Positions 37,686 to 54,596 of a DNA stretch of 64,000 nt are shown here, piece by piece. This DNA is from a virus. Taxonomy: Duplodnaviria; Caudoviricetes. How positions within the stretch are numbered: the first letter of the stretch is position 1; each line of letters starts with the position of its first letter. The position numbers were made by a program, and so were the translations under genes. The stretch is taken from positions 5,772 to 69,771 of the IMG/VR virus record IMGVR_UViG_3300012942_000002, one strand, 5' to 3'. Under the pieces are notes generated by a model. It searched no databases. It was not told the origin of the DNA and saw nothing but the letters and a program-made list of their open reading frames with translations.

Positions 37686-37695
37686 CACCAAAGAC

Positions 37696-37737
37696 GAGAG
37701 GCCCGTCCCCTGCGATCCCAGGGAGCGGGCCTCTCTT
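37696..37737. terminator. bidirectional terminator
   Basis: GAGAGGCCCG...CGGGCCTCTC hairpin between convergent genes. Confidence 0.7.
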
Positions 37738-37748
37738 GTGCATGTCGA

Positions 37749-38081: not shown

Positions 38082-38127
38082 CTCGTCCTCCTTGGGGACC
38101 GGGGCGGACCACCCGCCCACAACACCA

Positions 38128-38198
38128 ACTATACCCCATCTCGACATGGAAGGCAACACATCTGCAGACTTGCTTTTTGCCGGCATGTGGAGTAGAGT
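38128..38198. promoter_or_regulatory. back-to-back divergent early promoters
   Basis: Minus: TTGCCT-17-TATAGT (38156-38128); plus: TTGCTT-17-TAGAGT (38170-38198). Confidence 0.8.
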
Positions 38199-38229
38199 TG
38201 ACCTCGTCAACGACCCCAAGGAGGTCCAA

Positions 38230-38448
38230 ATGTCCGCTCCCGTCTTCGTCCCGCTCTCCGGTCTCTACGTCCGGCTGCTGGCCGCTACGGCGCTCGCTAC
38301 CTACGGCTGCGCCGACTGCGTCCTGCTGCCTGCCGGCAAGTTCTGCCTGTCCCACGTCTGCCTGGACTGCGGCCGTATGGCGCACCCGCACTCGATGGCC
38401 TGCGTCCGTCGCGCCTGCTTCTCGCACCCCGGCTGCGACGGCTGCTGA
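38230..38448 (+). CDS. small Cys-rich early protein
   Basis: CCCCAAGGAGG RBS; nine Cys. Confidence 0.75.
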   Translation: MSAPVFVPLSGLYVRLLAATALATYGCADCVLLPAGKFCLSHVCLDCGRMAHPHSMACVRRACFSHPGCDGC

Positions 38449-38460
38449 TCGCCGGTCGGC

Positions 38461-38485
38461 CGCCCCGGTCCTCGCGACCGGGGCG
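38461..38485 (+). terminator. hairpin terminator
   Basis: CGCCCCGGTC/GACCGGGGCG. Confidence 0.65.
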
Positions 38486-38519
38486 TGCCGGCATGTCCAA
38501 AGAATCTTGGCGCAACCCC

Positions 38520-38548
38520 TTGCCTTCCATGTGGACATGGAGTAGACT
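38520..38548 (+). promoter_or_regulatory. early promoter
   Basis: TTGCCT-17-TAGACT with ATGGAG before the -10. Confidence 0.7.
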
Positions 38549-38616
38549 TGGTTTGATGCCCAAAATCGAAGCCGGCATGCCTGCAGAAGAATCTTCAAGA
38601 AAGTTGCACAAAGGGG

Positions 38617-38645
38617 TAGCGGAGGACTGCAGTCTGGAGTATAGT
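38617..38645 (+). promoter_or_regulatory. early promoter
   Basis: TAGCGG-17-TATAGT. Confidence 0.75.
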
Positions 38646-38684
38646 TCTTACTGTAAGCGAGAGAACGCCCCAAGGAGGCACCAG

Positions 38685-38924
38685 ATGACCGAGAACCAGC
38701 TCCCCGCGATCCGCATCGAGTACCGCAACCAGCGCAACGGCTGGGCGACCGCCACCTTCAAGACCGGCTACGGCGCGGAGCGCGAGACGCTGGAGGTCCG
38801 CAAGGTTCGCAACAACGAGGACGCCCTGCTCAACCTCTCCAACGAGATGAAGGCCAAGGGTTACCGGGGCGTCAGCTGGGCCGCGATGGGCACCGGCTAC
38901 TGGATGGGCGAGACCTGGATCTGA
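38685..38924 (+). CDS. early hypothetical protein
   Basis: CCCCAAGGAGG RBS. Confidence 0.85.
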   Translation: MTENQLPAIRIEYRNQRNGWATATFKTGYGAERETLEVRKVRNNEDALLNLSNEMKAKGYRGVSWAAMGTGYWMGETWI

Positions 38925-38947
38925 TCCAAGAAAGTCGGGGTGGAGGG

Positions 38948-38976
38948 TAGCGCCTCCACCCCGGCTGGAGTATAGT
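38948..38976 (+). promoter_or_regulatory. early promoter
   Basis: TAGCGC-17-TATAGT. Confidence 0.75.
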
Positions 38977-39011
38977 AGTTCTCGTAAGCAAGAGAGCCCC
39001 AAGGAGGCCAG

Positions 39012-39284
39012 ATGTTCGACGCGGAGAACACCAACGAGGACCTGCTCAACCGGGTCCGCGCGACCCAGGAGCTGCCGGGCACGGTTGAGGCGACCGGCCG
39101 GATCCGTGGCCAGTGGCACGAGATCGTCGAGACCTTCGACGGCGAGGGTGAGGCCTACGCCTACTGGGTCGCGCTGGACGACACCAACTCGGTCGGCTAC
39201 AAGCAGGCCGACACGCTCGACACCGACCCCGACGCGATCGACCTGGACTACGTCCACCTGGTCGAGCACGACGGCGAGCTCTGA
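39012..39284 (+). CDS. acidic early hypothetical protein
   Basis: CCCCAAGGAGG RBS; followed by hairpin 39293-39329. Confidence 0.85.
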   Translation: MFDAENTNEDLLNRVRATQELPGTVEATGRIRGQWHEIVETFDGEGEAYAYWVALDDTNSVGYKQADTLDTDPDAIDLDYVHLVEHDGEL

Positions 39285-39450
39285 CCGAGCCGGGAGCCCC
39301 GCACCTCCAACCGGAGGGAGCGGGGCTCCTGCATGTGCAGACGGCTCTCTGCCGGCCTCCAGCACATCGGGCTGTAGGTTAAAGCCCATCTGCACCCTCC
39401 AAGCCGGCATACAGCCATCTGCAGCTTTCCAAAATAGTTGCTGTGCAGAG

Positions 39451-39480
39451 TAGCCAACCCATGTCGACATGGGGTATAGT
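39451..39480 (+). promoter_or_regulatory. early promoter
   Basis: TAGCCA-18-TATAGT. Confidence 0.7.
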
Positions 39481-39523
39481 TACTCTCGTAAGGCCAACCG
39501 AGAGAGTCCCCCAGGAGGACGAC

Positions 39524-40240
39524 ATGAGCTACTCCATCCGCTACAACCGAGCCACCAACCACATCGCCGGGATCGCTTGCAAGACCACCAGCAACCAGAC
39601 CGACGAGGACATCAACCGGACCGGCGTCGTGGCCTACTACGCGGAGAACGCCTGTGGCGTCCTGACCCGTGGCCGTCTGGCCCAGGGAGCCTCGTACGAC
39701 AGCCTGGAGGAGGCGCTCAAGGCCGCGCGCATCACCGGCGGCCGCAAGGTCTGCAAGACCTGCGAGAAGGCCGCGCTGGCCGCTCTCGAGGCCGAGGCGG
39801 AGGCCGCCGCCAACGCCCCGGTCGAGGAGCCCAAGCCGGAGATCGTCGAGGGTGCCGAGCACCAGGTCGGCGACAAGCTGTACTTCATCCCGCTGGAGCG
39901 CCCGCACGGGTACGCCTGCCCCGCCGGAGAGGTCGAGGTCGTCCGGGTGGTTGACCACGGCGAGCCGACCCTGTACAGCCCGCGCTTCACCTACGTCGTC
40001 CAGGTGCCCGGCGTGCCGGCAAGCAGCCAGGGAACGGACCACCGCGAGCTGCACAAGATCGGTGAGGTGCCCGTGGACTACCGGTTCGAGTGGACGTACC
40101 TGACGGCCATCTGCTCCGACTGCCGGCAGAACGTCACCTTCGCCAACTCCAAGATCGTGGAGGAGCCCATCCTCCGCGAGGGTCCGGTCTACCCCGGCAT
40201 GGCGACGGTCAAGGCGAAGCGGGTGTGCGCCCACCACTGA
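39524..40240 (+). CDS. early hypothetical protein with CxxC motifs
   Basis: CCCCCAGGAGG RBS; CKTC, CSDC. Confidence 0.85.
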   Translation: MSYSIRYNRATNHIAGIACKTTSNQTDEDINRTGVVAYYAENACGVLTRGRLAQGASYDSLEEALKAARITGGRKVCKTCEKAALAALEAEAEAAANAPVEEPKPEIVEGAEHQVGDKLYFIPLERPHGYACPAGEVEVVRVVDHGEPTLYSPRFTYVVQVPGVPASSQGTDHRELHKIGEVPVDYRFEWTYLTAICSDCRQNVTFANSKIVEEPILREGPVYPGMATVKAKRVCAHH

Positions 40241-40367
40241 CCTCAGAGCGACCCGTAGAGGCCCTCTCCAGCCCCGGAGAGGGCCTCTCGGCTACCCGGC
40301 TCACGGCGCATGCCGGCATGTCGGCAAACGGCCACCTACTGATTTTCAACAATCTTCAAGGTGCAGG

Positions 40368-40396
40368 TTTCCATCCATCTGCACATGGGGTATAGT
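40368..40396 (+). promoter_or_regulatory. early promoter
   Basis: TTTCCA-17-TATAGT. Confidence 0.7.
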
Positions 40397-40450
40397 TCTT
40401 AGTGTAAGGCCGACCGCAAGGGTCGGCCCCGAGGCCCCAAGGAGGCCCCG

Positions 40451-40771
40451 ATGGACGAGAACACCAACACCGAGCACGACAAGTACGAGCTCGCCGTCCA
40501 GATCTCCGTCCTGAGCTACGACCTCAACGTCGCCAACCCGACGGTGCCGACGCTGCTCAAGGAGAACACCGAGGACCAGCTGATCGCCAAGCGGGACAGC
40601 CTCCTGGCGATGATCGACGAGCAGGTCTCGCTGGACGGCTTCTACGAGGTGCCCGCCCACATGGACGCCACGTGGCTGTGCACGCTGCTCCAGACCGAGC
40701 TCGGCGCGTACGTCGACGTCGACCCGGAGGCCGAGCAGGGCAAGTGCATCGTCCTGGTCGACCCCAGCTGA
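40451..40771 (+). CDS. early hypothetical protein
   Basis: CCCCAAGGAGG RBS; followed by hairpin 40787-40817. Confidence 0.85.
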   Translation: MDENTNTEHDKYELAVQISVLSYDLNVANPTVPTLLKENTEDQLIAKRDSLLAMIDEQVSLDGFYEVPAHMDATWLCTLLQTELGAYVDVDPEAEQGKCIVLVDPS

Positions 40772-40859
40772 ACCCCGCGCCAAGGCGAGCCCCGGTTCCC
40801 CAGCGGAGCCGGGGCTCTGCCCTTGCCGGCATGCCGGCAAAAGTTTCTGCACAAAGGGG

Positions 40860-40889
40860 TAGCGCGCAGGTGTGCACATGGAGTAAAGT
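40860..40889 (+). promoter_or_regulatory. early promoter
   Basis: TAGCGC-18-TAAAGT. Confidence 0.7.
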
Positions 40890-40929
40890 TCTATCAACAG
40901 CCCGAACGAGGAGCCCCAAGGAGGCCGAC

Positions 40930-41184
40930 ATGAACAGCTACAAGGTTACGATGCGGATGGGCCAGGACACCTGCAACACAACCACGGTCGTCGAGGCGGA
41001 GAGCGCGGAGGACGCGCCCCTGGTCGCGGAGATGAAGTGGACTGGGATCACGGTTCGGGTGCTGGACGTCGAGCGGGCGGACGACAGCAAGTACGGGTTC
41101 TGCGACGTCCACAAGGACCAGGAGCTGGAGGACCACTGCACCAGCTGCAACGCGGTCTACTGCGAGGCGTGCGAGTACGAGTAG
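40930..41184 (+). CDS. early protein with B-box-like Cys/His C-terminus
   Basis: CDVH...HCTSCNAVYCEAC; RBS; followed by hairpin 41202-41230. Confidence 0.8.
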   Translation: MNSYKVTMRMGQDTCNTTTVVEAESAEDAPLVAEMKWTGITVRVLDVERADDSKYGFCDVHKDQELEDHCTSCNAVYCEACEYE

Positions 41185-41261
41185 CGCACATGCCGGCAAC
41201 CGGCCCGCACCCCGGTGTGGGGTGCGGGCCTGAGGCAGTAGAAAGAATCTTCGATCTGGAG

Positions 41262-41290
41262 TAGCGCGAACCTCCAGATTGGAGTATAGT
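41262..41290 (+). promoter_or_regulatory. early promoter
   Basis: TAGCGC-17-TATAGT. Confidence 0.75.
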
Positions 41291-41335
41291 AGTTCTCGTA
41301 AGGCCAACCGGAACGAAGCCCCAAGGAGGCTCCCG

Positions 41336-41695
41336 ATGATGAACTCCGAGCGTACCGCCACCACCGTCGCCAAGCTGGCCCAGTCCGCCGCGCAGACCCT
41401 GCTCACCGCTCAGGCCCGCATCACCGACCAGTTCGCGGCCGGTGTGATGGTGTCCTCCTCCACCCTGGACTCCCTGATCGAGGCGCAGGCGGCGGCTCAC
41501 CTGACTGCCGGCCTGCAGACCCGCTGGAACCGGGGCGGGATGGCCGCCATCGAGTCCTGGCTGGAGGACGCGGCCGACCAGCTGATCACCGGCAACGCGG
41601 GCAGCTCCAGCAGCCCGGTCCACAACGCGATGGAGGTTGCCGAGCGCAAGGCGATGCAGGCGGCCTACCGGGCGCTGGCTCGCTGCCGCGACTGA
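41336..41695 (+). CDS. early hypothetical protein
   Basis: CCCCAAGGAGG RBS; followed by hairpin 41712-41739. Confidence 0.85.
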   Translation: MMNSERTATTVAKLAQSAAQTLLTAQARITDQFAAGVMVSSSTLDSLIEAQAAAHLTAGLQTRWNRGGMAAIESWLEDAADQLITGNAGSSSSPVHNAMEVAERKAMQAAYRALARCRD

Positions 41696-41744
41696 CCAAC
41701 CCCGCCCCGTCGGCCCGCATCCTGCAAAGGGTGCGGGCCTGGGG

Positions 41745-41773
41745 TAGTGAAAGAGCTCCACATGGAGTATAGT
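41745..41773 (+). promoter_or_regulatory. early promoter
   Basis: TAGTGA-17-TATAGT. Confidence 0.7.
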
Positions 41774-41810
41774 TACTCTCGTCAGCAAGCGAGTCCCCAA
41801 GGAGGACCCC

Positions 41811-42185
41811 ATGTACCAGTCCCTCGCGAACGCCGTCCAGATCGAGGCCGCCAAGGCCAACACCCGCCTGGAGCAGGCCAAGGCCGAGCTCACCAAGGCG
41901 CTGGCCACCCCGGTTGACGTTCCGGTCGGCCGGATGGAGGACCTCTGCAAGGCGCAGGCCGCGCTGCAGCTCTGGACCAAGCTGTACCTGGTCGCCGCCA
42001 AGTACCAGGGCGACTCGGCCGAGCAGAGCCGGATGCTGGTCCGCCGGGTCCGCGCTCTCCGCGACGAGCTGGTCGAGGAGTACGAGGTCCAGTCGACCAG
42101 CCCCTGGGTCAACGCCGAGGCCCGCACCGCCCGGAAGGTCAAGGTGGAGGTGTACGCGGTCCTCCGCGAGTTCGTCGAGGACTGA
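41811..42185 (+). CDS. early hypothetical protein
   Basis: GTCCCCAAGGAGG RBS; followed by hairpin 42204-42236. Confidence 0.85.
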   Translation: MYQSLANAVQIEAAKANTRLEQAKAELTKALATPVDVPVGRMEDLCKAQAALQLWTKLYLVAAKYQGDSAEQSRMLVRRVRALRDELVEEYEVQSTSPWVNAEARTARKVKVEVYAVLREFVED

Positions 42186-42595
42186 CAGCCCGGCCAACCG
42201 GCCCGAGCCCCGTTCCCCAAGTGGGAGCGGGGCTCTCTCGCGTTCCGGGGTCGCCGTGGCCCGTAGCGGCCCCGTAGGCGAGCGAACGCCCCGTGCGAGC
42301 CCCGTTGCCCCGCCAAGCCCGCGCGGAGCCGCCTACGAGCCTCCTACGGCTTCCGGCCGGACGTAACGGCGAGCCCGCGACCCGGCCACGCTGCGCCCCG
42401 GAGGGGCGAGTCCATGCCGGCTGCAAGCCGGCAGATGGCCCGATTCGACCCGATTTACCCTGAGGCGCGGTGAATCGCCGTAGACGCCCGGCACTCACTC
42501 CTACCTGGTCAAACAGAAGTTCTGGAAAAATCTTGAAGAAAGTTCGCGAGCCTCCTACCAGGGCATTCATCATGAATGACCAGGTAGACGCCGTG

Positions 42596-42624
42596 TTGCC
42601 TTCTGCGTGGATATGGAGCATGAT
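42596..42624 (+). promoter_or_regulatory. promoter for structured RNA A
   Basis: TTGCCT-17-CATGAT, preceded by palindrome 42554-42587. Confidence 0.6.
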
Positions 42625-42630
42625 AGTTCC

Positions 42631-42997
42631 TGTAAGCGAGAGGGCGGCGAGCGAAGCTCCCGGGACGGCGACTCCAGCCGACGGTCGAGGCTCCACCCGA
42701 AGAACGCGAACACCGAGCAAGGCGGCCAGGCGACAGGTCGGTAGCAGGAAATGCAGCGTCGGAGACTGGGCACCATCCCACCACAAGAAAACTGGTAGCG
42801 AGGGTAGTAGCGCGCAACGCTCCGGGGACGGACTTGCGGCTGGTCAGGGAGACACGGAACCGGCCACCGCAAGAGAGAACATCCGGAGAGTTGGCAAGGC
42901 GCAAGGGCCGAGCGAGCGGGCGGAGCGGCTGGTAGGTCCCACCGACGCCCGTGCAACACACAAGACGAAACAGCCCCGTCGGGAGACGCTGGCTGTA
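42631..42997 (+). ncRNA. putative structured ncRNA A ending at a hammerhead cleavage site
   Basis: No credible ORF; 5' domain covaries with 47249-47328; long-range stems 42756-62/42942-48 and 42833-39/42867-73. Confidence 0.55.
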
Positions 42998-43026
42998 GGC
43001 CGCTGAACGGCGGTCCTGAGGAGTCT
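42963..43026 (+). ncRNA. type II hammerhead ribozyme 1 (GUA site, cut after 42997)
   Basis: AGAC-GAAA-CAGCC..GGCTG-TA-GGCCGCT gaac GGCGGTC-CTGAGGA-GTCT. Confidence 0.88.
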
Positions 43027-43040
43027 CAAGGAGGAACACG

Positions 43041-43241
43041 ATGGGCATCCTGCCGAAGCGCGTCCCGCAGGCGAGCAACCCGCCGAACGGAACGCAGCAC
43101 GAGGGCCAGGGCGGTCAGTCCAACACGACGGGCTCCGGCCCGATCACGGACCGGCCGCTGCCCACCGAGGCCGACGGGCGCGACCTGATCCAGGTCGAGA
43201 ACCCGCTCGGCACGCCCGGCCCGGACGAGATCCAGCGCTGA
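43041..43241 (+). CDS. small Pro/Gly-rich protein
   Basis: AAGGAGG RBS joined to the ribozyme; followed by hairpin 43251-43279. Confidence 0.75.
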   Translation: MGILPKRVPQASNPPNGTQHEGQGGQSNTTGSGPITDRPLPTEADGRDLIQVENPLGTPGPDEIQR

Positions 43242-43315
43242 GCGGACGGCCAGCCGGGGAGCCCCCAGCTCCCCGGCTGTGCCGGCAACACCCGAAAGAA
43301 AGTTGCACTCCAGAG

Positions 43316-43344
43316 TAGCCATGCCGGCTGCAATGGAGTATAGT
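43316..43344 (+). promoter_or_regulatory. early promoter
   Basis: TAGCCA-17-TATAGT. Confidence 0.75.
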
Positions 43345-43388
43345 AGTTACTGTAAGGCCAACCCGACGAAGTCCCCAAGGAGGACCCC

Positions 43389-43991
43389 ATGGCCCGCAAC
43401 GAGAACAAGACCCAGAAGAACTTCGAAGCCCTCGCCGCCAAGGCTCCGACCCAGCTGCACGAGGACTTCGCCGAGTGGCTGTACATCCAGACCGGCATCA
43501 AGGTGGACGTCAAGACCGTCCAGCTGGCCGTCTCCTTCCGGATGGACTTCCAGGCCTCCCCCGAGAACCAGGCCAAGCTGGCCGAGCGCAAGGCAGCGGC
43601 TGCGGCCCGCAAGAAGGCGTCGGCCGAGCGCAAGAAGGCCAAGCTGGAGGCCGAGCTGGCGAAGCTCAAGGGAGATGCCGGCAAGGCCGAGGAGCCCAAG
43701 CAGGAGGCCGCCCCGGTCGTCGAGGAGACCAAGACCGAGGAGCCGGGGCCGGTCCAGAAGCTGACGGTGGTCTACGGCAACGGCGAGCCCGAGGTGCACA
43801 AGTTCGGCTGCGCCGACCTCAAGAAGATGACCAAGGCCAAGGGCTTCTCCAAGGAGACCGCGAACGTCCGGAGCCACACCGAGCTGACCCACCTGATCTA
43901 CTCGGACATGATCGACTCCGGCGAGTCCAGCCTGCAGGACAACTACATGGCCTACAACGCCAAGCCCTGCTGCCCCGCGCTGGACAGCTGA
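43389..43991 (+). CDS. Lys/Ala-rich paralog family protein 1
   Basis: PTQLHEDFAEWL...KTVQLAVSFRMDFQASPENQ, shared with 47743 and 54597. Confidence 0.85.
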   Translation: MARNENKTQKNFEALAAKAPTQLHEDFAEWLYIQTGIKVDVKTVQLAVSFRMDFQASPENQAKLAERKAAAAARKKASAERKKAKLEAELAKLKGDAGKAEEPKQEAAPVVEETKTEEPGPVQKLTVVYGNGEPEVHKFGCADLKKMTKAKGFSKETANVRSHTELTHLIYSDMIDSGESSLQDNYMAYNAKPCCPALDS

Positions 43992-44000
43992 CCAACCCCA

Positions 44001-44070
44001 GGACGAAACCGCCCGGTCTCCCGAGAGGAGGCCGGGCGGTCTGCGGCTGAGTGGCCGTACTGACGAGTCC
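44001..44070 (+). ncRNA. type II hammerhead ribozyme 2 (GUC, cut after 44041)
   Basis: GGAC-GAAA-CCGCCCGG..CCGGGCGG-TC-TGCGGCT gagt GGCCGTA-CTGACGA-GTCC. Confidence 0.93.
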
Positions 44071-44084
44071 CCAAGGAGGATCGC

Positions 44085-44366
44085 ATGACCGGCGAATCCG
44101 TCATCACCGACGAGCAGCTCGACGAGTGGGAGGCGCAGAACGTGCACCGTGGCAACAAGGCGGCTGCACCCATCCTCCGCGAGCTCACGCCTGAACAGCG
44201 CACCGTGGCCGTTGCTGAGGCCCACACGCGCATGAACCTGAGCGCGGGCTGGAACTACTCCGGCGCTGTCTGGCAGGCCGTGCAGGACTTGAAGGCGGGT
44301 CGTACGCCGTGCCTGGACGCGGCAGCCGACTATCGCAAGCGCGAGAACGAGCGCACCGGCCGCTGA
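44085..44366 (+). CDS. hypothetical protein flanked by two hammerheads
   Basis: CCAAGGAGG RBS. Confidence 0.85.
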   Translation: MTGESVITDEQLDEWEAQNVHRGNKAAAPILRELTPEQRTVAVAEAHTRMNLSAGWNYSGAVWQAVQDLKAGRTPCLDAAADYRKRENERTGR

Positions 44367-44377
44367 CATGCCGGCAA

Positions 44378-44433
44378 GGACGAAACCCGGCACCCAGCCG
44401 GGTCGGGCACTGGATGGTGCCCCTGACGAGTCC
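44378..44433 (+). ncRNA. type II hammerhead ribozyme 3 (GUC, cut after 44404)
   Basis: GGAC-GAAA-CCCGGC accca GCCGGG-TC-GGGCACT ggat GGTGCCC-CTGACGA-GTCC. Confidence 0.93.
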
Positions 44434-44447
44434 CCCAGGAGGATGTC

Positions 44448-44765
44448 ATGGGTCTGGTTCCGCTGCCGAGCGACGACGAGGTCGTCAAGGCGTGGCGTGA
44501 GCACGGCAAGAACAACTCGGCGACGGCCCGAGCGTTGGGCGTCAACGAGAGCACGATCCGCAAGGTGATCGTGCGAGCAACCGGCCGGACGCCTCGCCCC
44601 TACAAGAGGCTCCCGCTGGCCGGTGCACAGCTCTACGGAGCGTACCTGAAGGAAGGCGGCGACTGCCACTCCGTAGGCCGCCTAGCACGCCGCTACGGCG
44701 TCAAGCCCCAGTCGGTGCGCGCTGCGCTCCGTCGCTATCTGGACCGGGTCGACCCGGTCAACTGA
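44448..44765 (+). CDS. double HTH DNA-binding protein
   Basis: NNSATARALGVNESTIRK and SVGRLARRYGVKPQSVR. Confidence 0.8.
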   Translation: MGLVPLPSDDEVVKAWREHGKNNSATARALGVNESTIRKVIVRATGRTPRPYKRLPLAGAQLYGAYLKEGGDCHSVGRLARRYGVKPQSVRAALRRYLDRVDPVN

Positions 44766-44783
44766 GTCCCCAAGGAGGACAAC

Positions 44784-45008
44784 ATGGACAACGACCGCCG
44801 CGCGGTGTACGAGTACCTGATGAACAGCGGGTCGCAGATCAAGATGTCGACCTACGCGATCTTCGACGGCGTCGTCAACCACGACTACGTCGTCGTGCAC
44901 AGCGCCCCTCCCCGCGTCGTGCGGGAGCTCGTCGGCTTCTGCAAGATGGTGTCGATGAGCGAGCAGGGGCTCCTCATCCCGGTGACCAAGAAGGAGACCA
45001 GCAAGTGA
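44784..45008 (+). CDS. hypothetical protein
   Basis: GTCCCCAAGGAGG RBS. Confidence 0.8.
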   Translation: MDNDRRAVYEYLMNSGSQIKMSTYAIFDGVVNHDYVVVHSAPPRVVRELVGFCKMVSMSEQGLLIPVTKKETSK

Positions 45009-45163
45009 GCATCCCCAAGCCGCACGGCGGACACGAGCCCGCGCCTCCGCCGGAGGCCGACCCGGTCGTTCAGGCCGAGACGCGCGGCCACACCCCGGCG
45101 GAGCAGGTCCAGCCGCCCGAGGCCGACGCTCAGGACCTGTACGGTCCGCCCTCGGGGCAGTGA
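45005..45163 (+). CDS. small Pro-rich protein
   Basis: GTGA overlaps at both ends; AAGGAG upstream. Confidence 0.5.
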   Translation: MSIPKPHGGHEPAPPPEADPVVQAETRGHTPAEQVQPPEADAQDLYGPPSGQ

Positions 45164-45354
45164 TGCTGGATGTTCTTCATCGAGCTGCTCGCAGCCTTCT
45201 TCGAGGGGCTGATCGATGCGCTGAGGCCGAGCCGGTCGAGCCGCCGCAGGAAGCGGCGCTGAGCCAGGACCAGAGGCTGCTGTTCGACGCCATCAAGCGG
45301 GAGTTCCCGTTCATGAGCGACGAGTGCATCCTGCAGGTCATGTCAGAGATGTAG
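45160..45354 (+). CDS. hypothetical protein
   Basis: GTGA overlap; ends just before hammerhead 4. Confidence 0.55.
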   Translation: MMLDVLHRAARSLLRGADRCAEAEPVEPPQEAALSQDQRLLFDAIKREFPFMSDECILQVMSEM

Positions 45355-45358
45355 ACAA

Positions 45359-45411
45359 GGACGAAACCTCCGGAAGGAGGTCGGGCGTTGGATGACGCTC
45401 CTGAAGAGTCC
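45359..45411 (+). ncRNA. type II hammerhead ribozyme 4 (GUC, cut after 45382)
   Basis: GGAC-GAAA-CCTCC ggaa GGAGG-TC-GGGCGTT ggat GACGCTC-CTGAAGA-GTCC. Confidence 0.93.
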
Positions 45412-45425
45412 CGAAGGAGGACCAA

Positions 45426-45837
45426 GTGTACGACCGCAAGCATAGGATCCAGGTGGCGTTCGACGCCGAGACTGTTGCCGAGGCGACGGGCATCAAGCTC
45501 GACCCCGACACGTTCGAGGAGCACCTGGCGTTCGCCACGGAGTACCAGCTGGCGATGTACCGGCTCGGATCCAAGGCGAAGCGCGAGCAGACCCGTCCGC
45601 ACGTTCGGCAGTCGCTCGGCTACAGCTCGCTGATGCAGCTCCGAGCGCTACCTGTTCGCGATGGCCGAGCACCAGCACGAGATCGCCAAGGGTGGCCGCC
45701 TCAACGAGATGGAGCGCGCGGCTGTCTGGCGGATGCTGGAGCACGAGGGCAAGGTCGAGTTCGGACCCGCCCGGATGTACCACGCGACCGACCCGCAGAA
45801 CACCACGCTCCGTAAGCACATCGAGAACAACAAGTAA
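45426..45837 (+). CDS. hypothetical protein, apparently broken by a +1 frame change near 45639
   Basis: High-GC3 frame switches from MYDRK...SSLMQ to SERYLFAM...IENNK* (TAA 45835-37). Confidence 0.55.
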
Positions 45838-45860
45838 CTGTCCCCAAGGAGGACTGCACA

Positions 45861-46217
45861 ATGGCACAGAGCAACCGTCCCCGCATGTCTGTCGAGCCCA
45901 AGGTCGTGGAGCACCTGCTCGCGAGTCGTGGCCGCATCGTCACCCTGGCCGAGCTCGTCAAGGCGCTCCCGCGTGGAGCCAACGAGTCCTCCGTCCGAGC
46001 GGCCATGCGCCGCCTCTCGGAGCGGATGGACATCACGGTCATCTCCAAGGGGAACAGCTGGAGGCTTGAGGCCGAGTCCAGCCCCGACCTCACCGAGAAG
46101 GCCAACCCGGATGCCGGCAAGTCCCTCGGCAGCTTCGAGCAGGTCGGCGAGATGCAGGATGGAAGCCTGGTCGTGCGCGACGAGCAGAACCGGCTGTACG
46201 CGCTGAAGGCGCTCTAG
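45861..46217 (+). CDS. winged-helix DNA-binding protein
   Basis: GRIVTLAELVKAL...ESSVRAAMRRL...GNSWRL. Confidence 0.75.
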   Translation: MAQSNRPRMSVEPKVVEHLLASRGRIVTLAELVKALPRGANESSVRAAMRRLSERMDITVISKGNSWRLEAESSPDLTEKANPDAGKSLGSFEQVGEMQDGSLVVRDEQNRLYALKAL

Positions 46218-46312
46218 CGGCCCTACGTGGCCACGTAACGAACGAACGCGCCCCGGTCGGGCCGAGTGCCTGACCGGGGCGTGCGAGGCCCGTAGAGGGC
46301 GGAAGGAGCACC

Positions 46313-46705
46313 ATGAGGATCAGGAACGTAGCGATCGCCGGAGCGCTCATGCTCGGCGTGGCGGCGTGCGCGAGTGACGGACCCAGCGAGGTCACCGGCA
46401 CTCGCGACGACGTGCGCAAGGTGGCGGCCGTCAAGGAGAAGAGCCACAGGGAGAAGACCAGCGAGCGCAAGTGCACGCGCAGGGTCAACGGCACGTGCAA
46501 GTCGTACAAGACCGTGACCAGCTGGAAGAAGGTCGTGGACCGTGCCGGCAAGCCCGCTGTGTACTGCGTCGAGCTCGACAACGTCAACGGCGACAAGGGC
46601 CGGGACGACGAGTGGTTCACGGTAACCAATCACGACTACACCAAGGCGCTCTTCAAGGCCGAGGACGAGGGGCTCAAGTTCACGCCCCTGAGGACGGGCT
46701 GCTGA
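46313..46705 (+). CDS. putative lipoprotein
   Basis: Signal peptide with lipobox-like VAAC. Confidence 0.75.
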   Translation: MRIRNVAIAGALMLGVAACASDGPSEVTGTRDDVRKVAAVKEKSHREKTSERKCTRRVNGTCKSYKTVTSWKKVVDRAGKPAVYCVELDNVNGDKGRDDEWFTVTNHDYTKALFKAEDEGLKFTPLRTGC

Positions 46706-47034
46706 TGCGCACGCGCAGGGTTCTGCTCATCGGCGGTCTCATGGATGGCAAGTGGCACACGCACCTGAGCACGGACAGCAGGGTGTATATCGCGAAGCCC
46801 ATGCAGGTCACCGTCCTCCGCGAGGAGGACAGGCGTGCTCGGGTAGACATGCCAGAGCACGAGGTGTATCACCTGCAGCACGTGGCCCTGTACGGGCATG
46901 GGCTGTGGGTCGGCCTGCACGAGAGCACGCTGGACCGCCTCAGCATGGAGCGCCCCGGTCCGACTGAGGCGCACACCGGGATGATCCTGAGGGCGATCCT
47001 CCAGCGGGATGTGGCGACGGAGCTCGGCCTCTGA
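46705..47034 (+). CDS. hypothetical protein
   Basis: TGATG overlap; LIGGLMDG N-terminus. Confidence 0.75.
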   Translation: MRTRRVLLIGGLMDGKWHTHLSTDSRVYIAKPMQVTVLREEDRRARVDMPEHEVYHLQHVALYGHGLWVGLHESTLDRLSMERPGPTEAHTGMILRAILQRDVATELGL

Positions 47035-47202
47035 GCCGGAGGCCGGGTGAATCGCCGTTGACGATAGGGTTCGCCCGATTCGCCCCATGACGCGTCGCAC
47101 TCATGCCGGCCTGCGGATATAGAAAAAGTCGAAAAAAGTTCCACGAAAGTTGCACATGCCCCTACCTGCGCATTCATCGCGAATGACCAGGTAGGGGCTG
47201 AG

Positions 47203-47231
47203 TTGCCTCGGAGCCGGATATGGCGCATAGT
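47203..47231 (+). promoter_or_regulatory. promoter for structured RNA B
   Basis: TTGCCT-17-CATAGT, preceded by palindrome 47161-47196. Confidence 0.65.
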
Positions 47232-47237
47232 TCTACT

Positions 47238-47697
47238 CAGGAAGCGACGAGGGCAAGGAACGAACTCCCCGGATGGCCGGTCTGGCCGAGGGTCGAGGTT
47301 CCGCCTGAAGACCGCGAACCCGAGCAGGACAGCCAAGAGAGACGGCTGCGATCGCGCACAGGACTTCGGTCCTGGCCGCTGACTCTAGACAGGAGCCGGA
47401 CTCCCCAAAACCGGTATGTTGCGAGCGACGCGACTGGACTTCCCGAGGACGGGCAGCCAACCTCCACTGCGGACGTTGGAAGCGCACACAGTCGGGCGGT
47501 ACTGAAAGCTGCTAGCGAGCAACGGACTCCACCTCTTCAAGCCTGGGTCAAGTGAGACACCCCGCTCGGGGCACCTCTGGCTAGGAAGTCGAAAGGTGGA
47601 CGGTCTGCCGGCAACCGCAACCCTCAACAAGCTGAGGAGATGCCGGCACTCATCAACAACAAGGACGAAACGAGCCCGCTGGGAAGCGCTGCTCGTC
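47238..47697 (+). ncRNA. putative structured ncRNA B ending at a hammerhead cleavage site
   Basis: Homolog of the ncRNA A 5' domain; CAGGAC-UUCG-GUCCUG 47359-74; stems 47418-23/47616-21 and 47528-34/47594-600. Confidence 0.55.
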
Positions 47698-47726
47698 CGC
47701 CGGTGGATGCCGGTGCCGATGAGTCC
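47663..47726 (+). ncRNA. type II hammerhead ribozyme 5 (U4C core variant, cut after 47697)
   Basis: GGAC-GAAA-CGAGC..GCTCG-TC-CGCCGGT ggat GCCGGTG-CCGATGA-GTCC. Confidence 0.82.
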
Positions 47727-47742
47727 CCAAGGAGGAAACACC

Positions 47743-48207
47743 ATGGCCGAGAACACCACCCCCAGCAAGAAGACCTTCGCTGAGCGTGCGGCCGCTGAGC
47801 CCACCGAGCTCCACAAGGCGTTCGCCAAGTGGATCGAGGAGAAGACGGGCGTCACCCCGGACCTGAAGACGGTCCAGCTCGCCGTCACCATGCGGATGGA
47901 CTTCCAGTCCAGCGAGGAGAACCAGAAGGCTCTCGCCGAGCGCAAGGCTGAGGCCGCCAAGAAGGCGGAGGAGGCCAAGGCCCGGAAGCTGGCCAAGCTG
48001 GAGGCGGAGCTCGCCAAGCTCAAGGGCGGCGAGCAGAAGGACGAGGCGAAGCCCGAGGAGCCCGCTGAGGCCCCGAAGGACGACGCTGAGCCCGCCGCTG
48101 AGGGCGACGGCGAGAACGGCGCGGAGGCGGCCACGGAGGCCGCTCCCGAGCCCAAGAAGGCGACCACCGCCCGGCGCACCCGGCGGACGGCGGCCACCAA
48201 GAAGTAA
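47743..48207 (+). CDS. Lys/Ala-rich paralog family protein 2
   Basis: PTELHKAFAKWI...KTVQLAVTMRMDFQSSEENQ; basic C-terminal tail. Confidence 0.85.
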   Translation: MAENTTPSKKTFAERAAAEPTELHKAFAKWIEEKTGVTPDLKTVQLAVTMRMDFQSSEENQKALAERKAEAAKKAEEAKARKLAKLEAELAKLKGGEQKDEAKPEEPAEAPKDDAEPAAEGDGENGAEAATEAAPEPKKATTARRTRRTAATKK

Positions 48208-48266
48208 CACCCCATGAGCGCCCCCGGTCGAGGTGACCCCCACCCTCGACCGGGGTGCCAGGGCGA

Positions 48267-48331
48267 GGACGAAACGCTCCGGCTCATGCCGGCTGGAGCG
48301 TCCGGCGCTGGATGGCGCTGCTGAGGAGTCC
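48267..48331 (+). ncRNA. type II hammerhead ribozyme 6 (GUC, cut after 48302)
   Basis: GGAC-GAAA-CGCTCCGGC..GCTGGAGCG-TC-CGGCGCT ggat GGCGCTG-CTGAGGA-GTCC. Confidence 0.93.
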
Positions 48332-48344
48332 CCAAGGAGGATGC

Positions 48345-48818
48345 ATGGACCAGGTGTGGATCATCTGGAAGGTTCTGGTCGAGGAGGACCGCGAGGAATG
48401 CACTGCGGTGTTCACCGACGAGGACAAGGCCAACGACGCGATCAACCGGCTCCGGCTGCGCGACGTTGACAACGACGAGGTTGACTACAACCTCCGGCCG
48501 TGCTCGGTCGACCCGACCCCCGAGATGCTGGAGCTCCCCAAGACGCTCCGCGAGATGGGGTGCGACGAACTGCTCAACTCGGCTCGCATCGAGCTCTGCA
48601 ACGAGGGCAAGATGTACGTGCCCCTGTGGATCAACCCGGCGTGGCTGGTGCACGAGCTCAAGGCCAAGTACGGGCTCGGCATCGACTTCAAGGGTCGCCA
48701 GATGACGCTGGTCTCTCCCGACGAGGTCCAGCGTCGCCGAGAGTTCGGCATCCAGGATGAGAATGCTCCGAGCGACTTCGGGTACGAGGACGCCGGGTTC
48801 ACCGAGACGAGGGACTGA
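48345..48818 (+). CDS. hypothetical protein
   Basis: CCAAGGAGG RBS joined to the ribozyme. Confidence 0.85.
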   Translation: MDQVWIIWKVLVEEDREECTAVFTDEDKANDAINRLRLRDVDNDEVDYNLRPCSVDPTPEMLELPKTLREMGCDELLNSARIELCNEGKMYVPLWINPAWLVHELKAKYGLGIDFKGRQMTLVSPDEVQRRREFGIQDENAPSDFGYEDAGFTETRD

Positions 48819-48822
48819 GGAC

Positions 48823-48918
48823 GTGAACCACAGACAGAAGCCGGATCACTCAGGAGCGTGGTTCTGGTTATTAACCATCGCCCTCCTCGTGGCCTACGCT
48901 AGGTCGCAAGGCGGGTGA
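48823..48918 (+). CDS. possible 31-aa membrane peptide with tandem TTA codons
   Basis: GTG...WFWLLTIALLVAYA; TTA TTA at 48868-73. Confidence 0.3.
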   Translation: MNHRQKPDHSGAWFWLLTIALLVAYARSQGG

Positions 48919-49021
48919 CCTCCGCAGCCAGATCGAAACGCCCGCAACGCGACCGCCAGTCGTGGAGCGGGCGTCCGGCGGTAAGGCACCGCTGCTGACG
49001 AGATCGTGGAGGATCTTGCAC

Positions 49022-49306
49022 ATGAAGCTGGACAGACTGATCGAAGACCTCCTGGCCATCCAGGAGGAGCTCAAGGAGCAGGACGTCGACACGAGCGAGG
49101 TCGACGTGCTTGCCGGCATCCAGCCGAGCTACCCGCTCACCGGAGTCGTCCTGGGAGCCATCTCGGGCGAGACCCTCGCCGAGCACGTGGACGGCGAGCT
49201 CGACGACAACATGCGACGCGCGGTCTGGGTCGCCACGGACCAGGTCAGCTCGTACAGCGACTACCGGCCGTACGCGCCCCGTCCGCTGTGGGAGGCTGTC
49301 CGATGA
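49022..49306 (+). CDS. hypothetical protein
   Basis: GGAGG RBS; QPSYPL...YAPRPLW. Confidence 0.8.
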   Translation: MKLDRLIEDLLAIQEELKEQDVDTSEVDVLAGIQPSYPLTGVVLGAISGETLAEHVDGELDDNMRRAVWVATDQVSSYSDYRPYAPRPLWEAVR

Positions 49307-49620
49307 AGCCCGAGGTGTGCGTCGCCCCGGCTGACAGGGGCTCCAACTGCTACCTGTGCCAGTCGAAGGCGGCTGTCTGCTGCATCCCGCGTGACCTGGA
49401 CGACCCGGAGATCACGCCGGAAGCGGGCGAGTGGTACCCCATGGGGCTGCTGTCCTGCTGGGGGTGCATCCGCAAGATCCTGACGATGCTCATGTCGGAC
49501 CCCAAGCTCCCCGAGCGAGAGGCCGACGCCCTGGAGGAAGACGTGAGGGCGCTGCGCCCGAGCCGCCTGGAGGAGCTTGAGCACAAGCTCGACGAGATCG
49601 ACGAGGAGCTCGGTCACTGA
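49303..49620 (+). CDS. hypothetical protein with CxxC motifs
   Basis: ATGA overlap; GGAGG RBS. Confidence 0.75.
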   Translation: MKPEVCVAPADRGSNCYLCQSKAAVCCIPRDLDDPEITPEAGEWYPMGLLSCWGCIRKILTMLMSDPKLPEREADALEEDVRALRPSRLEELEHKLDEIDEELGH

Positions 49621-49775
49621 TGGCAAGCTTCATGCAGAACTGGTGGACCAAGCACGACATGGACCGCGACGGCAAGGGCTGCTTCTTCATGATGCTCGGA
49701 TGCCTCGGGATCGTGTTCGTGGCTGGTGTCGGGGCCACGCTCGTCGGCGTGTACCTGCTCGGCAAGTACTCCTGA
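49620..49775 (+). CDS. small membrane protein
   Basis: TGATG overlap; FFMMLGCLGIVFVAGVGATLVGVYLL. Confidence 0.65.
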   Translation: MASFMQNWWTKHDMDRDGKGCFFMMLGCLGIVFVAGVGATLVGVYLLGKYS

Positions 49776-49789
49776 ACAACCTCAGCCTA

Positions 49790-49843
49790 GGACGAAACCT
49801 CCGAGAGGAGGTCCGCCGGTACGGTGCCGGTGCTGACGAGTCC
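49790..49843 (+). ncRNA. type II hammerhead ribozyme 7 (GUC, cut after 49813)
   Basis: GGAC-GAAA-CCTCC gaga GGAGG-TC-CGCCGGTA cgg TGCCGGTG-CTGACGA-GTCC. Confidence 0.93.
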
Positions 49844-49858
49844 TGAGGAGATTCGCAC

Positions 49859-50830
49859 ATGTCTGACAAGCAGAACCCGATGCTGGCCAAAATCCAGGGC
49901 CTGCTCGACACGTACCAGTCGCTGGCCGACACCAACCCCGAGGGTGCGCAGTCGTACCTCGACAAGGCCGAGCAGCTCATGCAGAAGTACGCGGTGGACG
50001 AGGCGATGCTGTCCGCCGCGCGCCAGCTGGCCGGTGGGCTCGTGGAGGAGCCCGAGCAGCGCATCATCACGTTCATGCCGGCAAACGACAAGCTCGGCAA
50101 CCAGTGGTACAACCTGATCATCGCGGTCGCCAAGCACTACGACTGCGAGTTTTTCGGCTGGACCTCCGGCACGGGTTACCTGGTCGGGTTCCCGTCCAAC
50201 ATGGACCTGGTCGAGATGGTGTACACCTCGCTGCGCCTTCAGGCGCTGGCCAAGCTCGACCCCAAGCCCAACAAGCAGCTCTCGTTCGACGAGAACGTGT
50301 ACATCCTGCACGAGGCCGGGATCAAGTGGCAGCGCATCGCCTTCCTCATGAACCAGGCGTGGCACGAGGCCAAGGAGCTCGGGGTCGTCATCGACTCCAA
50401 CTGGGAGCAGGTCCCCTGGGAGATCGACGACAGGGGCAATGGCAAGAAGGACGGCGGTCGACTGATCCGGGCGGCCAAGCGCTGGTGCAAGGACATCGGC
50501 GAGCCGTACCGCGCGGTGTCCTCGCCGGTCACCTTCCAGCGCTCCTACGCGCAGGGCTTCCTCAACGAGGTGCGCGACAGGTTCGCCCGGCTCCGCAAGT
50601 ACCGCGAGGACCAGATCAAGTCCACCAACGGAGCGGAGCTCGTGCTGTTCGACCGCAACAAGCTGGTCCGGGACGCGATGGACGCGCTCAAGGCCAGCAT
50701 GGGGCACAAGGACGGCAAGGGGTACAGGCAGCGCATCGTCGGCGAGGCGTACTACCGAGGCCAGGCCGACGGTCGCACGGCGGACATCGGTCAGGACCGG
50801 ATGGGCGGCGGACGGAAGGCGATCGGCTGA
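49859..50830 (+). CDS. DUF2786-like domain protein
   Basis: N-terminal KIQGLL...KAEQLMQKYAVD; C-terminal AYYRGQADG. Confidence 0.75.
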   Translation: MSDKQNPMLAKIQGLLDTYQSLADTNPEGAQSYLDKAEQLMQKYAVDEAMLSAARQLAGGLVEEPEQRIITFMPANDKLGNQWYNLIIAVAKHYDCEFFGWTSGTGYLVGFPSNMDLVEMVYTSLRLQALAKLDPKPNKQLSFDENVYILHEAGIKWQRIAFLMNQAWHEAKELGVVIDSNWEQVPWEIDDRGNGKKDGGRLIRAAKRWCKDIGEPYRAVSSPVTFQRSYAQGFLNEVRDRFARLRKYREDQIKSTNGAELVLFDRNKLVRDAMDALKASMGHKDGKGYRQRIVGEAYYRGQADGRTADIGQDRMGGGRKAIG

Positions 50831-51402
50831 TGAGGTGTGGCAACTGCAAGGGTGAGCACGCCAGCGTGGCTCAGGTCCGGTCTTGCTTCTCCAGCAAGCC
50901 GGGCCAGCCCAGCGCCAAGCAGATGTCGCTGGCGCAGGCTCTGGGTCGCGAGAAGGTTCGCCTCCCGGAGCACAAGGACCTGAGCGACGAGGAATACCAC
51001 CTCATGATCGCCGGGCTCAGCCGGGAGGACATGGGCGTCTTCCTGACGAAGATGCTCAAGCAGCCGAACGAGGGGCCCTCCAGGGAAGAGCTCTTCGAGA
51101 AGGTGGACAACGGGAAGTACGCGCTGCGGAACGAGGAAGACGACGACATCCGGTTCTACGCCATCGGCGGGACGCGACACCGCGTCCTGTGGGAGCTGAC
51201 CGGAGCGCCTGGCGACTTCAAGATGCAGCGCATCTACCGACCCGAGAAGATCCTCAAGAGGATCGCTGCCGACCCGGTCGCTGCGTTCGCCCTGTTCGGA
51301 CTCAACGTCGGAACGTGTGGAAGGTGCGGCTCGCCGCTGACCCAGAAGCACACCCGAGAGCGCGGCATCGGCGACACCTGCTACGCCAAGCTCACGACAT
51401 GA
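50830..51402 (+). CDS. Zn-finger protein (DUF6011-like C-terminus)
   Basis: CGNC..H; CGRCGSPLT...RERGIGDTC. Confidence 0.75.
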   Translation: MRCGNCKGEHASVAQVRSCFSSKPGQPSAKQMSLAQALGREKVRLPEHKDLSDEEYHLMIAGLSREDMGVFLTKMLKQPNEGPSREELFEKVDNGKYALRNEEDDDIRFYAIGGTRHRVLWELTGAPGDFKMQRIYRPEKILKRIAADPVAAFALFGLNVGTCGRCGSPLTQKHTRERGIGDTCYAKLTT

Positions 51403-51621
51403 CGAGGCACGAGTTCCTCAGGTGCATACTCTGGGGCATAGTCCTGGGGTGCGCAGCCCGCGCGGCGGTGATCATCGCCCAGAGCCTGTAAATGGCCGCG
51501 TAACGGCTCGGCGCGACCGCGTCGGGCAAAGGTACTCAGGGACGGCCCCGGAGCCGCCTACGACCCCGTAGGATCGCTCCTCGGGCCGTCCCTGCGTCTG
51601 TCCTCGGCTCGGAGGCCGAAG

Positions 51622-51840
51622 ATGCGTTGGAATGACATCCCCGAAGGCACCTCGTTCGCCATGTCCCAGAAGGGCGTGGACGAGCTGCGTGCCGGCAAGC
51701 CCAAGGCGTTCGGTTACGGCATCATCTGCGGAGCGGTCCTCACGCTCGTATTGCAGAGCTGCGCGTCCGACGACAGCAAGGCGGACGACAGCCCGAAGCC
51801 GGGTCCGTCCGTCAGCAGCACCCACAAGCCCGGCAACTAG
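51622..51840 (+). CDS. small membrane/lipoprotein-like protein
   Basis: GGAGG RBS; hydrophobic segment followed by LQSC. Confidence 0.65.
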   Translation: MRWNDIPEGTSFAMSQKGVDELRAGKPKAFGYGIICGAVLTLVLQSCASDDSKADDSPKPGPSVSSTHKPGN

Positions 51841-51863
51841 CAAGAGAGCGAGCAGCATCACTC

Positions 51864-52070
51864 ATGGAGCACATCGGACTCGTCGGAGCACTGGTGATCG
51901 TCGGCCACGTCGTGGTCGGTCTGGGCACGGGGGCTCTCGGCCTCTGGATGCAGCGCCGGTTCTTCCTCCACGCCGACGAGGACCAGTCGTTCGCCGTGCC
52001 CGGCACGGTAGCGTTCTTCACCTCCCTGACCTACTTCTGGGTGGTGATCCAGCTTGACACATGGACGTGA
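51864..52070 (+). CDS. small membrane protein
   Basis: Two hydrophobic segments. Confidence 0.6.
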   Translation: MEHIGLVGALVIVGHVVVGLGTGALGLWMQRRFFLHADEDQSFAVPGTVAFFTSLTYFWVVIQLDTWT

Positions 52071-54356: not shown

Positions 54357-54596
54357 CTGTGGATCTGATGGATATTCTGTTCGTCATAACGCTCACGCTG
54401 GTCCCATCTGGAATGGCTTGGCGCGCATATCGCGTCGGCTACCAGGCGGGACAGGCGGAATGTGAAAGGCGACACAGAATCAAGGACCGATACTCCAGGC
54501 GTAACAATCGCGAGACACGTTCCTGAAACAGTCGAGCACGGGCGATATGAGGTATAGTTGTCCGTGCCAACCCGATCCGATATGGAGCAACTCCCC

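Follow-up and report, generated by a model that had tools for sequence, protein, structure and literature searches.

Type II hammerhead ribozymes punctuate the putative early region of a Streptomyces phage and terminate two conserved leader RNAs

The window analyzed here is a stretch of 64,000 nucleotides of phage DNA, corresponding to positions 5,772 to 69,771 of IMG/VR record IMGVR_UViG_3300012942_000002, a complete virus record of 69,771 nt. A structural scan of this 64-kb window revealed that this soil Streptomyces phage carries an array of eight type II hammerhead ribozymes, all on the coding (+) strand, each located directly 5' of the ribosome-binding site of a gene (HH1 to HH8; see Table 1 for coordinates). 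The best reading of this array, which we consider on balance to be probable, is that self-cleavage splits early transcripts into hairpin-capped, likely stabilized mRNAs and releases leader RNAs.

The array is genuine. A strict structural scan found seven elements in the window, compared with a mean of 0.02 (maximum 1) in 100 dinucleotide shuffles, and the copy that it did not catch was HH5. The order of elements is stem II-GAAA-stem III-UH-stem I-core-stem II, and in all eight copies loops close stems I and III while stem II is open. The core nucleotides (C3 U4 G5 A6 N7 G8 A9, G12 A13 A14, A15.1-U16.1 and H17) are exact in seven of the eight; HH5 has the core CCGAUGA, i.e., a U4C change, and thus departs from the hammerhead core at U4. 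The original prediction, made from the sequence alone, had listed seven elements. All seven were recovered where predicted, on the + strand and in the type II order, and the seven 5'-OH positions proposed for them coincide with H17+1 in our scan. However, an eighth copy, HH7 (stem II GATC/GATC; 23.6 bits with the Rfam model Hammerhead_II), had been overlooked, and the statement that all copies read CUGANGA is wrong for one of the seven, the copy at 47663. That prediction also made no mention of the U4C core or of the pair of conserved leader RNAs described below. No further hammerheads of type I, II or III were found elsewhere in the 69,771-nt genome, and there were none of type I or III in 15 array loci.

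We scanned seven of nine named relatives (all but Lizz and PHTowN), one IMG/VR relative and the window. There were eight copies in ShakeNBake and Yara, seven in Gibson, Rooney, Dryad and the IMG/VR relative, and six in Wentworth and phiRKBJ001, so that the same array, which it had been proposed to seek in related phages, is present with six to eight copies in each of seven cultured Streptomyces phages. Over these nine related sequences (window included) there were 46 distinct copies, in which all of the stems were kept, with many pair types. Because the scan itself demanded stems, it is the pair types, and not the pairing, that represent evidence. Stem II occurs as four different helices (GGAC/GUCC, AGAC/GUCU, GAUC/GAUC and GAGC/GCUC), and in an 11-row subset stem I was 100% paired, with 21 cells changed on both sides; none of 500 shuffles scored as high. 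The earlier observation that the stems diverge while remaining paired therefore holds, in that all three helices covary. These results support the view that the hammerheads are under selection for structure, as judged from sequence comparison.

The U4C change in HH5 is common to six of the seven named relatives, the canonical U4 being found in Yara and in the one IMG/VR relative, and the stems of HH5 still covary (phiRKBJ001). U4C is a known natural variant with lower activity in vitro that still supports viroid infectivity. HH5 is likely to be a slowed copy.

A U at position 7 of stem I and an A just 5' of stem II were found in all 46 distinct copies, although the scan demanded neither. Among the IMG/VR matches listed, 154 of the 157 copies matched by pattern had the A, and 23 of the 28 that were recovered from structure alone had the U. 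The two bases match a Hoogsteen contact described for extended hammerheads (PMC11875169), in which U1.7 meets an A located where loop II ends. By contrast, the pseudoknot between loop I and the 3' tail, which is typical of type II hammerheads (PMC3088659) and a majority feature of the Perreault consensus, was rejected for these copies, because pairing was no higher than with shuffled partners: four pairs were possible in only one of the 46, and summed pairing was 96 versus 94.2 with shuffled partners (306 of 1000 as high). It is likely that fast cleavage would rely on the single U1.7-A contact instead of the usual type II pseudoknot. The copies therefore resemble Hammerhead_II (RF02276) in topology and core, but differ in having a 4-bp stem II, a stem I of 6 bp in which the second pair is G-U (41 of 46), the invariant U1.7 and 5' A in place of the pseudoknot, and scores that are all below the gathering threshold (GA) of the model.

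In the mechanism that we favor, the eight hammerheads would cut themselves during transcription. Three promoter-like sites (42596, 43316 and 47203) appear to define three units, with one, three and four ribozymes, and cleavage would divide these three putative early transcripts into mRNAs the size of a gene or a block and would set free two conserved non-coding leaders. Because of the type II order, a hairpin would be left on both new ends: the upstream piece would end in an intact stem III with a 2',3'-cyclic phosphate, and the downstream piece would open with stem I, which would begin at the 5'-OH base itself. Each downstream gene would gain a uniform hairpin-capped 5' end of 42-46 nt (predicted cut to start codon for HH1 to HH8: 43, 43, 43, 43, 45, 42, 46 and 45 nt). 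This cap would be likely to stabilize the downstream mRNA and to uncouple the downstream gene from upstream RNA, as a natural RiboJ-like insulator. In folding of the isolated motifs, the hammerhead was the minimum free energy structure in seven of eight, with HH1 shifting stem I, and after the cut stem I was predicted to persist (outer pair >= 0.9) in five of eight.

In phage T7, the early polycistronic transcript is cut by host RNase III just upstream of genes into separate mRNAs. The proposed mechanism is similar in that one early polycistron would be cut just upstream of genes, but whereas T7 uses a host protein nuclease that leaves 5'-phosphate ends, catalysis here would be by RNA only and would leave 5'-OH ends. 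As with the synthetic insulator RiboJ (PMC6206723), self-cleavage is predicted to strip upstream RNA and to leave a constant 5' hairpin before the ribosome-binding site; RiboJ itself is described as raising mRNA about twofold, possibly via its 5' hairpin. However, RiboJ was engineered from sTRSV with an added hairpin, whereas here stem I itself would form the cap, and the upstream piece would keep stem III.

Several results weigh against this mechanism. The Rfam search that had been suggested for the array succeeded only in part: there were no matches to RF02276 at the GA of 37 bits, and six of the eight copies were detected below it (22.1-31.1 bits, E 0.006-1.4). With flanking sequence, the equilibrium probabilities of stem II were 0.01, 0.47, 0.66, 0.00, 0.00, 0.12, 0.43 and 0.08 for HH1 to HH8, and the HH5 cut product was predicted to refold (stem I 0.04). 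U1.7 is reported to be non-essential in trans constructs (PMC11875169). HH7 is also present in ShakeNBake, Dryad, Yara and the IMG/VR relative, but Gibson and Rooney retain the gene that follows it without a hammerhead, indicating that single copies are dispensable. The probability that the Shine-Dalgarno (SD) sequence is unpaired before and after the cut was 0.40/0.27, 0.36/0.38, 0.61/0.57 and 0.60/0.27 for HH1 to HH4, and 0.52/0.53, 0.59/0.52, 0.38/0.82 and 0.54/0.58 for HH5 to HH8; SD access was gained only in HH7, and cleavage as a general translation switch was therefore rejected. Public sequencing comprised 21 listed runs, all of them contigs, of which four were examined, with relatives mostly below 95% identity. 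In one RNA-labelled run (X4), a 5.6-kb contig spans the promoters and several hammerheads, as DNA would; the run is thus likely to be DNA, so that RNA ends cannot be read from it. Finally, RNase J1 degrades glmS mRNA after self-cleavage (PMC3997798), i.e., a 5'-OH end is not protective per se.

The last point bears on an alternative, in which the ribozymes cut for decay or timing: 5'-OH ends would be entry sites for RNase J, and early mRNAs would be cleared fast, as with glmS but without a ligand. RNase J1 does attack the 5'-OH product of glmS (PMC3997798). SD access is not raised after the cut in seven of eight copies, with a clear fall in HH1 and HH4, and the array genes are small, of no known function and likely early, so that short expression would suit them. 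On the other hand, the predicted 5' end is a GC-rich hairpin of 6-7 bp without an unpaired lead. RNase J requires unpaired 5' bases. The same requirement has been described for RppH. To signal decay, a site for a host endonuclease would come at a lower cost. We consider that cleavage for decay is unlikely.

Cleavage would also leave 5'-OH and 2',3'-cyclic phosphate ends suitable for re-ligation of the pieces between ribozymes into circular mRNAs, with either chimeric hammerheads or an RtcB-type ligase of the host as the joining activity, and the stem II halves of neighboring copies can pair (4 of 4) in five of the seven intervals. However, the ends would be held by a 4-bp helix only, the pairing fails (2/4 and 3/4) on both sides of HH7, and two compatible intervals are interrupted by terminator-like hairpins and promoter-like sites. 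The annotation of ShakeNBake contains no RNA ligase. Circles and spliced products were sought by Perreault et al. (2011), and none were found (PMC3088659). Circularization appears to be very unlikely indeed. In retrozymes and viroid-like circular RNAs, a unit is flanked by repeated hammerheads; the units here are different genes and not repeats, and in the RNA-labelled runs (contigs) there was no back-joint among the joints listed. A joint in run X3 (42993-49811, with 30 letters on the short side) was considered as a splicing product, but is explained by Gibson-type relatives, in which HH8 has an HH1-like stem III.

The hammerhead-SD cassette might instead serve chiefly as a joint for recombination, spreading together with mobile gene cassettes, with cleavage tolerated rather than needed. 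The GUCCCCAAGGAGG junction also occurs before genes that lack a hammerhead (41793, 43371, 44766 and 45840), and in relatives it is a point at which genes are exchanged or deleted; gene gain and loss in relatives occurs where ribozyme and SD meet. In addition, the body of HH2 is joined to the tail of HH3 in Wentworth and phiRKBJ001, and stem III modules have been exchanged between array positions. Yet such a joint would favor identity, whereas the stems diverge while their pairing, the core and the tertiary bases stay the same; moreover, the same layout is seen in unrelated phages. We regard a role primarily in recombination as quite unlikely, and retain processing into capped mRNAs as the best reading.

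A pattern scan of IMG/VR yielded at least 146 stretches, and a rescan that kept copies with at least three stem II pairs (two weaker copies being dropped) left at least 185 distinct hammerheads outside the named phages, with a few overlapping double calls among the 185. An SD-like word and a start codon were present no more than 41 nt 3' of 140 of the 185 (among the matches listed), compared with 1051 of 9250 random windows. Among the matches listed, unrelated contigs carry arrays as large or larger, i.e., eight copies in L025, nine in L044 and 11 in L064; in the last of these, stem II is mostly GGUC/GACC.

The array belongs to a kind that has been known since 2011, and its layout is not new in itself. 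Perreault et al. (2011) described hammerheads that flank single genes or gene blocks in prophages, and proposed processing into operon- or gene-length mRNAs; three triple arrays cleaved in vitro, and one in E. coli (PMC3088659). The copies described here likewise lie on the sense strand and flank single genes or short gene blocks. The original prediction had proposed selection for self-cleavage in an mRNA processing system, and had implied that this was novel. Selection for structure is supported by the 46 copies and processing is still the best reading, but the novelty is not borne out, given the clustered prophage hammerheads of 2011 and the IMG/VR arrays of eight, nine and 11.

As in the triples of C. 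scindens, A. caulinodans and A. tumefaciens, for which polycistron processing was proposed, the hammerheads are clustered between small phage genes (PMC3088659). The present array differs in having eight copies, all of type II, in cultured phages without an annotated integrase, in the uniform spacing of 42-46 nt to the start codon, and in that two copies end long conserved non-coding leaders. The lytic double-stranded DNA haloviruses HF1 and HF2 also carry a hammerhead (HHphage) just upstream of an early gene, and a transcript 5' end has been mapped within 3 nt of its cut, but this is a single salt-adapted variant rather than an array. We found no published account of hammerheads in these Streptomyces phages or of the leader core, in a search that left most subscription papers outside.

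What self-cleaving ribozymes do in bacteria and phages is still described as largely elusive (PMC6765202). Most large arrays are in uncultured contigs, whereas the present one is in cultured phages and is thus directly testable. Because the relatives offer natural losses (HH7) as well as a natural slow variant (U4C versus U4 in HH5), this array could settle whether such ribozymes stabilize, destabilize or circularize mRNAs. What distinguishes it from known arrays is the cultured-phage setting together with two uncatalogued leader RNAs that are terminated by ribozymes.

These leader RNAs merit attention as a separate finding. HH1 and HH5 follow not a gene but 337 and 430 nt of non-coding sequence, respectively, in each case behind paralogous promoter-like sites. 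The first 165 nt of leader 1 are identical to Yara at 145 of 165 positions, and the corresponding figure for the gene that follows HH5 is 342 of 465. Open reading frames (ORFs) were rejected as an explanation, since 1- and 2-nt indels among the relatives break any frame. The leaders share a core of about 60-110 nt with strong sequence conservation, in which a hairpin loop can pair with the four nucleotides (4-mer) that immediately precede an invariant GAC (pseudoknot 1), and the 3' part can fold into an H-type pseudoknot whose linker is rich in A (pseudoknot 2). Pseudoknot 1 covaries (CGAC/GUCG, CAAG/CUUG, CGAG/CUCG, CGGU/ACCG, CGGC/GCCG, CUGG/CCAG, CCUC/GAGG and AGAG/CUCU). The loop of a 5-bp hairpin pairs with its own 4-mer in 30 of 32 distinct copies, compared with 51 of 256 combinations with foreign 4-mers, although this contrast is not a probability, because the copies are related, there are only nine 4-mers, and another hairpin was picked in several close copies. 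Two changes in leader 1 of the window are compensatory in pseudoknot 2 (AGGG/CCCU to UGGG/CCCA, and CCG/CGG to CCA/UGG). Leader 2 has further hairpins, the stems of which vary around a fixed ACUGC loop. The core is thus predicted to be doubly pseudoknotted. Folding of single leader sequences was no more stable than that of shuffles (z -0.42 and +0.55), and RNAalifold on the close relatives gave little covariation energy; support for the structure comes only from the distant copies and the variable hairpins.

Rfam 15 gave no match over the leaders in positions 36000-52000 of the window at E <= 10, and no credible match over the leader core in 14 loci outside the close group at E <= 5. The core is similar to RNAs encoded close to ribozyme-associated genes (for the concept, see PMC6765202) in being a structured RNA in a hammerhead-rich phage context, but differs from them in having no Rfam match. 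Such RNAs include the RAGATH-type motifs. The leader motif had no match in six supplement files of PMC10690425.

Pattern scans located the leader core in another 15 loci that we placed outside the close group, drawn from IMG/VR and metagenome contigs and from one Streptomyces genome; among cultured phages, only close relatives match. In 185,579 prokaryote genomes, the exact 22-nt core had no matches and a relaxed pattern had one, and none of 17 IMG/VR loci taken from the hammerhead scan matched the core (the close relative L069 being set aside). We inspected up to 450 nt downstream of the core in the 15 outside loci. There was a hammerhead before the first gene in four, a hammerhead after a short ORF in one, a tRNA-like element in three and neither in five, and two were cut short. 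Two complete records of 84-88 kb with the leader core contained no Rfam-level hammerhead. Because a hammerhead or tRNA-like element is present in some of these loci and neither in five, release would be common but not universal. The tRNA-like elements lie where this phage has a hammerhead (L165, L189 and L200, 115-254 nt downstream of the core) and carry a T-loop motif, with a CCA end in L200. The latter is in the Streptomyces genome, beside a divergent repressor-like ORF and an excisionase-like ORF, as judged by eye. Relaxed ARAGORN calls in six of the 15 downstream stretches are weak evidence for tRNAs, since three lack the T-loop motif.

In this phage, the leaders would be released as free RNA by HH1 and HH5. 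We tentatively suggest that they belong to a hitherto undescribed class of non-coding RNAs with a double pseudoknot in actinobacterial phages, which would be transcribed first, from the strongest of the early promoters, and then cut free to act in trans during host takeover. Release would be by a hammerhead or, in other phages, by a tRNA look-alike, and the role might, equally tentatively, be that of a ligand- or protein-binding RNA. Their profile (a compact conserved core, two covarying pseudoknots and no Rfam match) fits a new aptamer, ribozyme or protein-binding RNA, and if the leaders do act in trans, the array would double as a maturation system for non-coding RNA, in cultured phages. Alternatively, they might act only in cis during transcription, as antiterminators or regulatory aptamers, with the first ribozyme merely discarding them. 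The put sites of phage HK022 provide an analogy for cis-acting leader antiterminators. Both leaders are directly behind paralogous promoter-like sites and head operons with terminator-like hairpins, and five of the 15 outside loci had neither a hammerhead nor a tRNA-like element. However, downstream of leader 1 there is a single 66-aa gene before a strong hairpin and another promoter-like site, which would leave little to antiterminate, and in seven of the 15 outside loci a hammerhead (four) or tRNA-like element (three) close behind would define the 3' end of the RNA. We regard an action exclusively in cis as somewhat unlikely.

Table 1. Positions of the ribozymes, leader RNAs and putative transcription signals in the window
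Feature	Position	Strand	Details
Promoter-like site 1	42596..42624	+	TTGCCT, 17 nt, CATGAT; putative; paired motif recurs before leaders of named relatives
Leader RNA 1	42633..42961	+	Non-coding, 9% U, conserved; P1 hairpin 42723-42740; predicted double-pseudoknot core 42758-42796; start putative
HH1	42963..43026	+	Stem II AGAC/GUCU; H17 = A42997; ends leader 1; precedes 66-aa gene at 43041
Strong hairpin after first gene	43251..43279	+	Likely terminator, no U tract; kept in relatives
Promoter-like site 2	43316..43344	+	Putative; before 200-aa gene 43389-43991
HH2	44001..44070	+	H17 = C44041; precedes gene 44085
HH3	44378..44433	+	H17 = C44404; precedes helix-turn-helix gene 44448 (Pfam HTH_28)
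HH4	45359..45411	+	H17 = C45382; precedes gene 45426
Promoter-like site 3	47203..47231	+	TTGCCT, 17 nt, CATAGT; paralog of site 1; putative
Leader RNA 2	47241..47661	+	Paralog of leader 1, multi-helix; P1 hairpin 47330-47348; core 47383-47415; start putative
HH5	47663..47726	+	Variant core CCGAUGA (U4C); H17 = C47697; ends leader 2; precedes gene 47743
Strong hairpin just 5' of HH6	48220..48258	+	Terminator-like or 3'-protective; kept in relatives
HH6	48267..48331	+	H17 = C48302; precedes gene 48345
HH7	48931..49005	+	Stem II GAUC/GAUC; H17 = C48975; predicted 5'-OH end 48976; 23.6 bits; precedes gene 49022
HH8	49790..49843	+	H17 = C49813; precedes DUF2786/DUF7168 gene 49859-50830

The array region is 98.9-99.3% identical to the Streptomyces phages ShakeNBake, Lizz and PHTowN, which are cultured and grow on Streptomyces viridochromogenes DSM40736, and 75-83% identical to Gibson, Rooney, Wentworth, phiRKBJ001, Dryad and Yara; we take these phages to be those labelled cluster BN in PhagesDB. 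The annotation of ShakeNBake contains no integrase, and no RNA feature in the array region. By that annotation, small hypothetical genes surround the array, and genes for dCMP deaminase, helicase, Cas4 and a RecA-like protein lie downstream of it. We infer that the array genes are early because of their genome position and the repeated promoter-like sites. Comparison of 18 array proteins with Pfam and PHROGs returned nothing beyond two helix-turn-helix-like proteins, DUFs and uncharacterized families.

Directly upstream of the array is a run of single small genes without hammerheads (38635, 38966, 39470, 40386, 41280, 41763 and 43334), each behind its own TGGAGTATAGT-type promoter-like site. 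Two ways to give each gene its own 5' end, TGGAGTATAGT-type promoter-like sites and hammerheads, are thus found side by side. Upstream of both leader promoters (42563-42587 and 47170-47194) is the palindrome TTCATCnnGAATGA followed by CCAGGTA, a possible operator, and the palindromic word ATGCCGGC occurs at 42414, 43320, 44367, 47101 and 47639, in intergenic stretches and one hammerhead loop. On the - strand, ARAGORN called a tRNA-Pro at 43212-43298, over the terminator-like hairpin, which is likely to be spurious.

The Lys/Ala/Glu-rich proteins encoded at 43389-43991 and 47743-48207 are paralogs (53% identical; phrog_20596, with a weak match to DUF7194), of which one gene is behind a bare promoter and the other behind leader 2 and HH5; the protein encoded at 54558-55160 resembles them by eye. 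The gene after HH4 (45426-45837) has a frameshift at about residue 74 when compared with ShakeNBake gene 84 and with other relatives, which may be either real or an assembly error.

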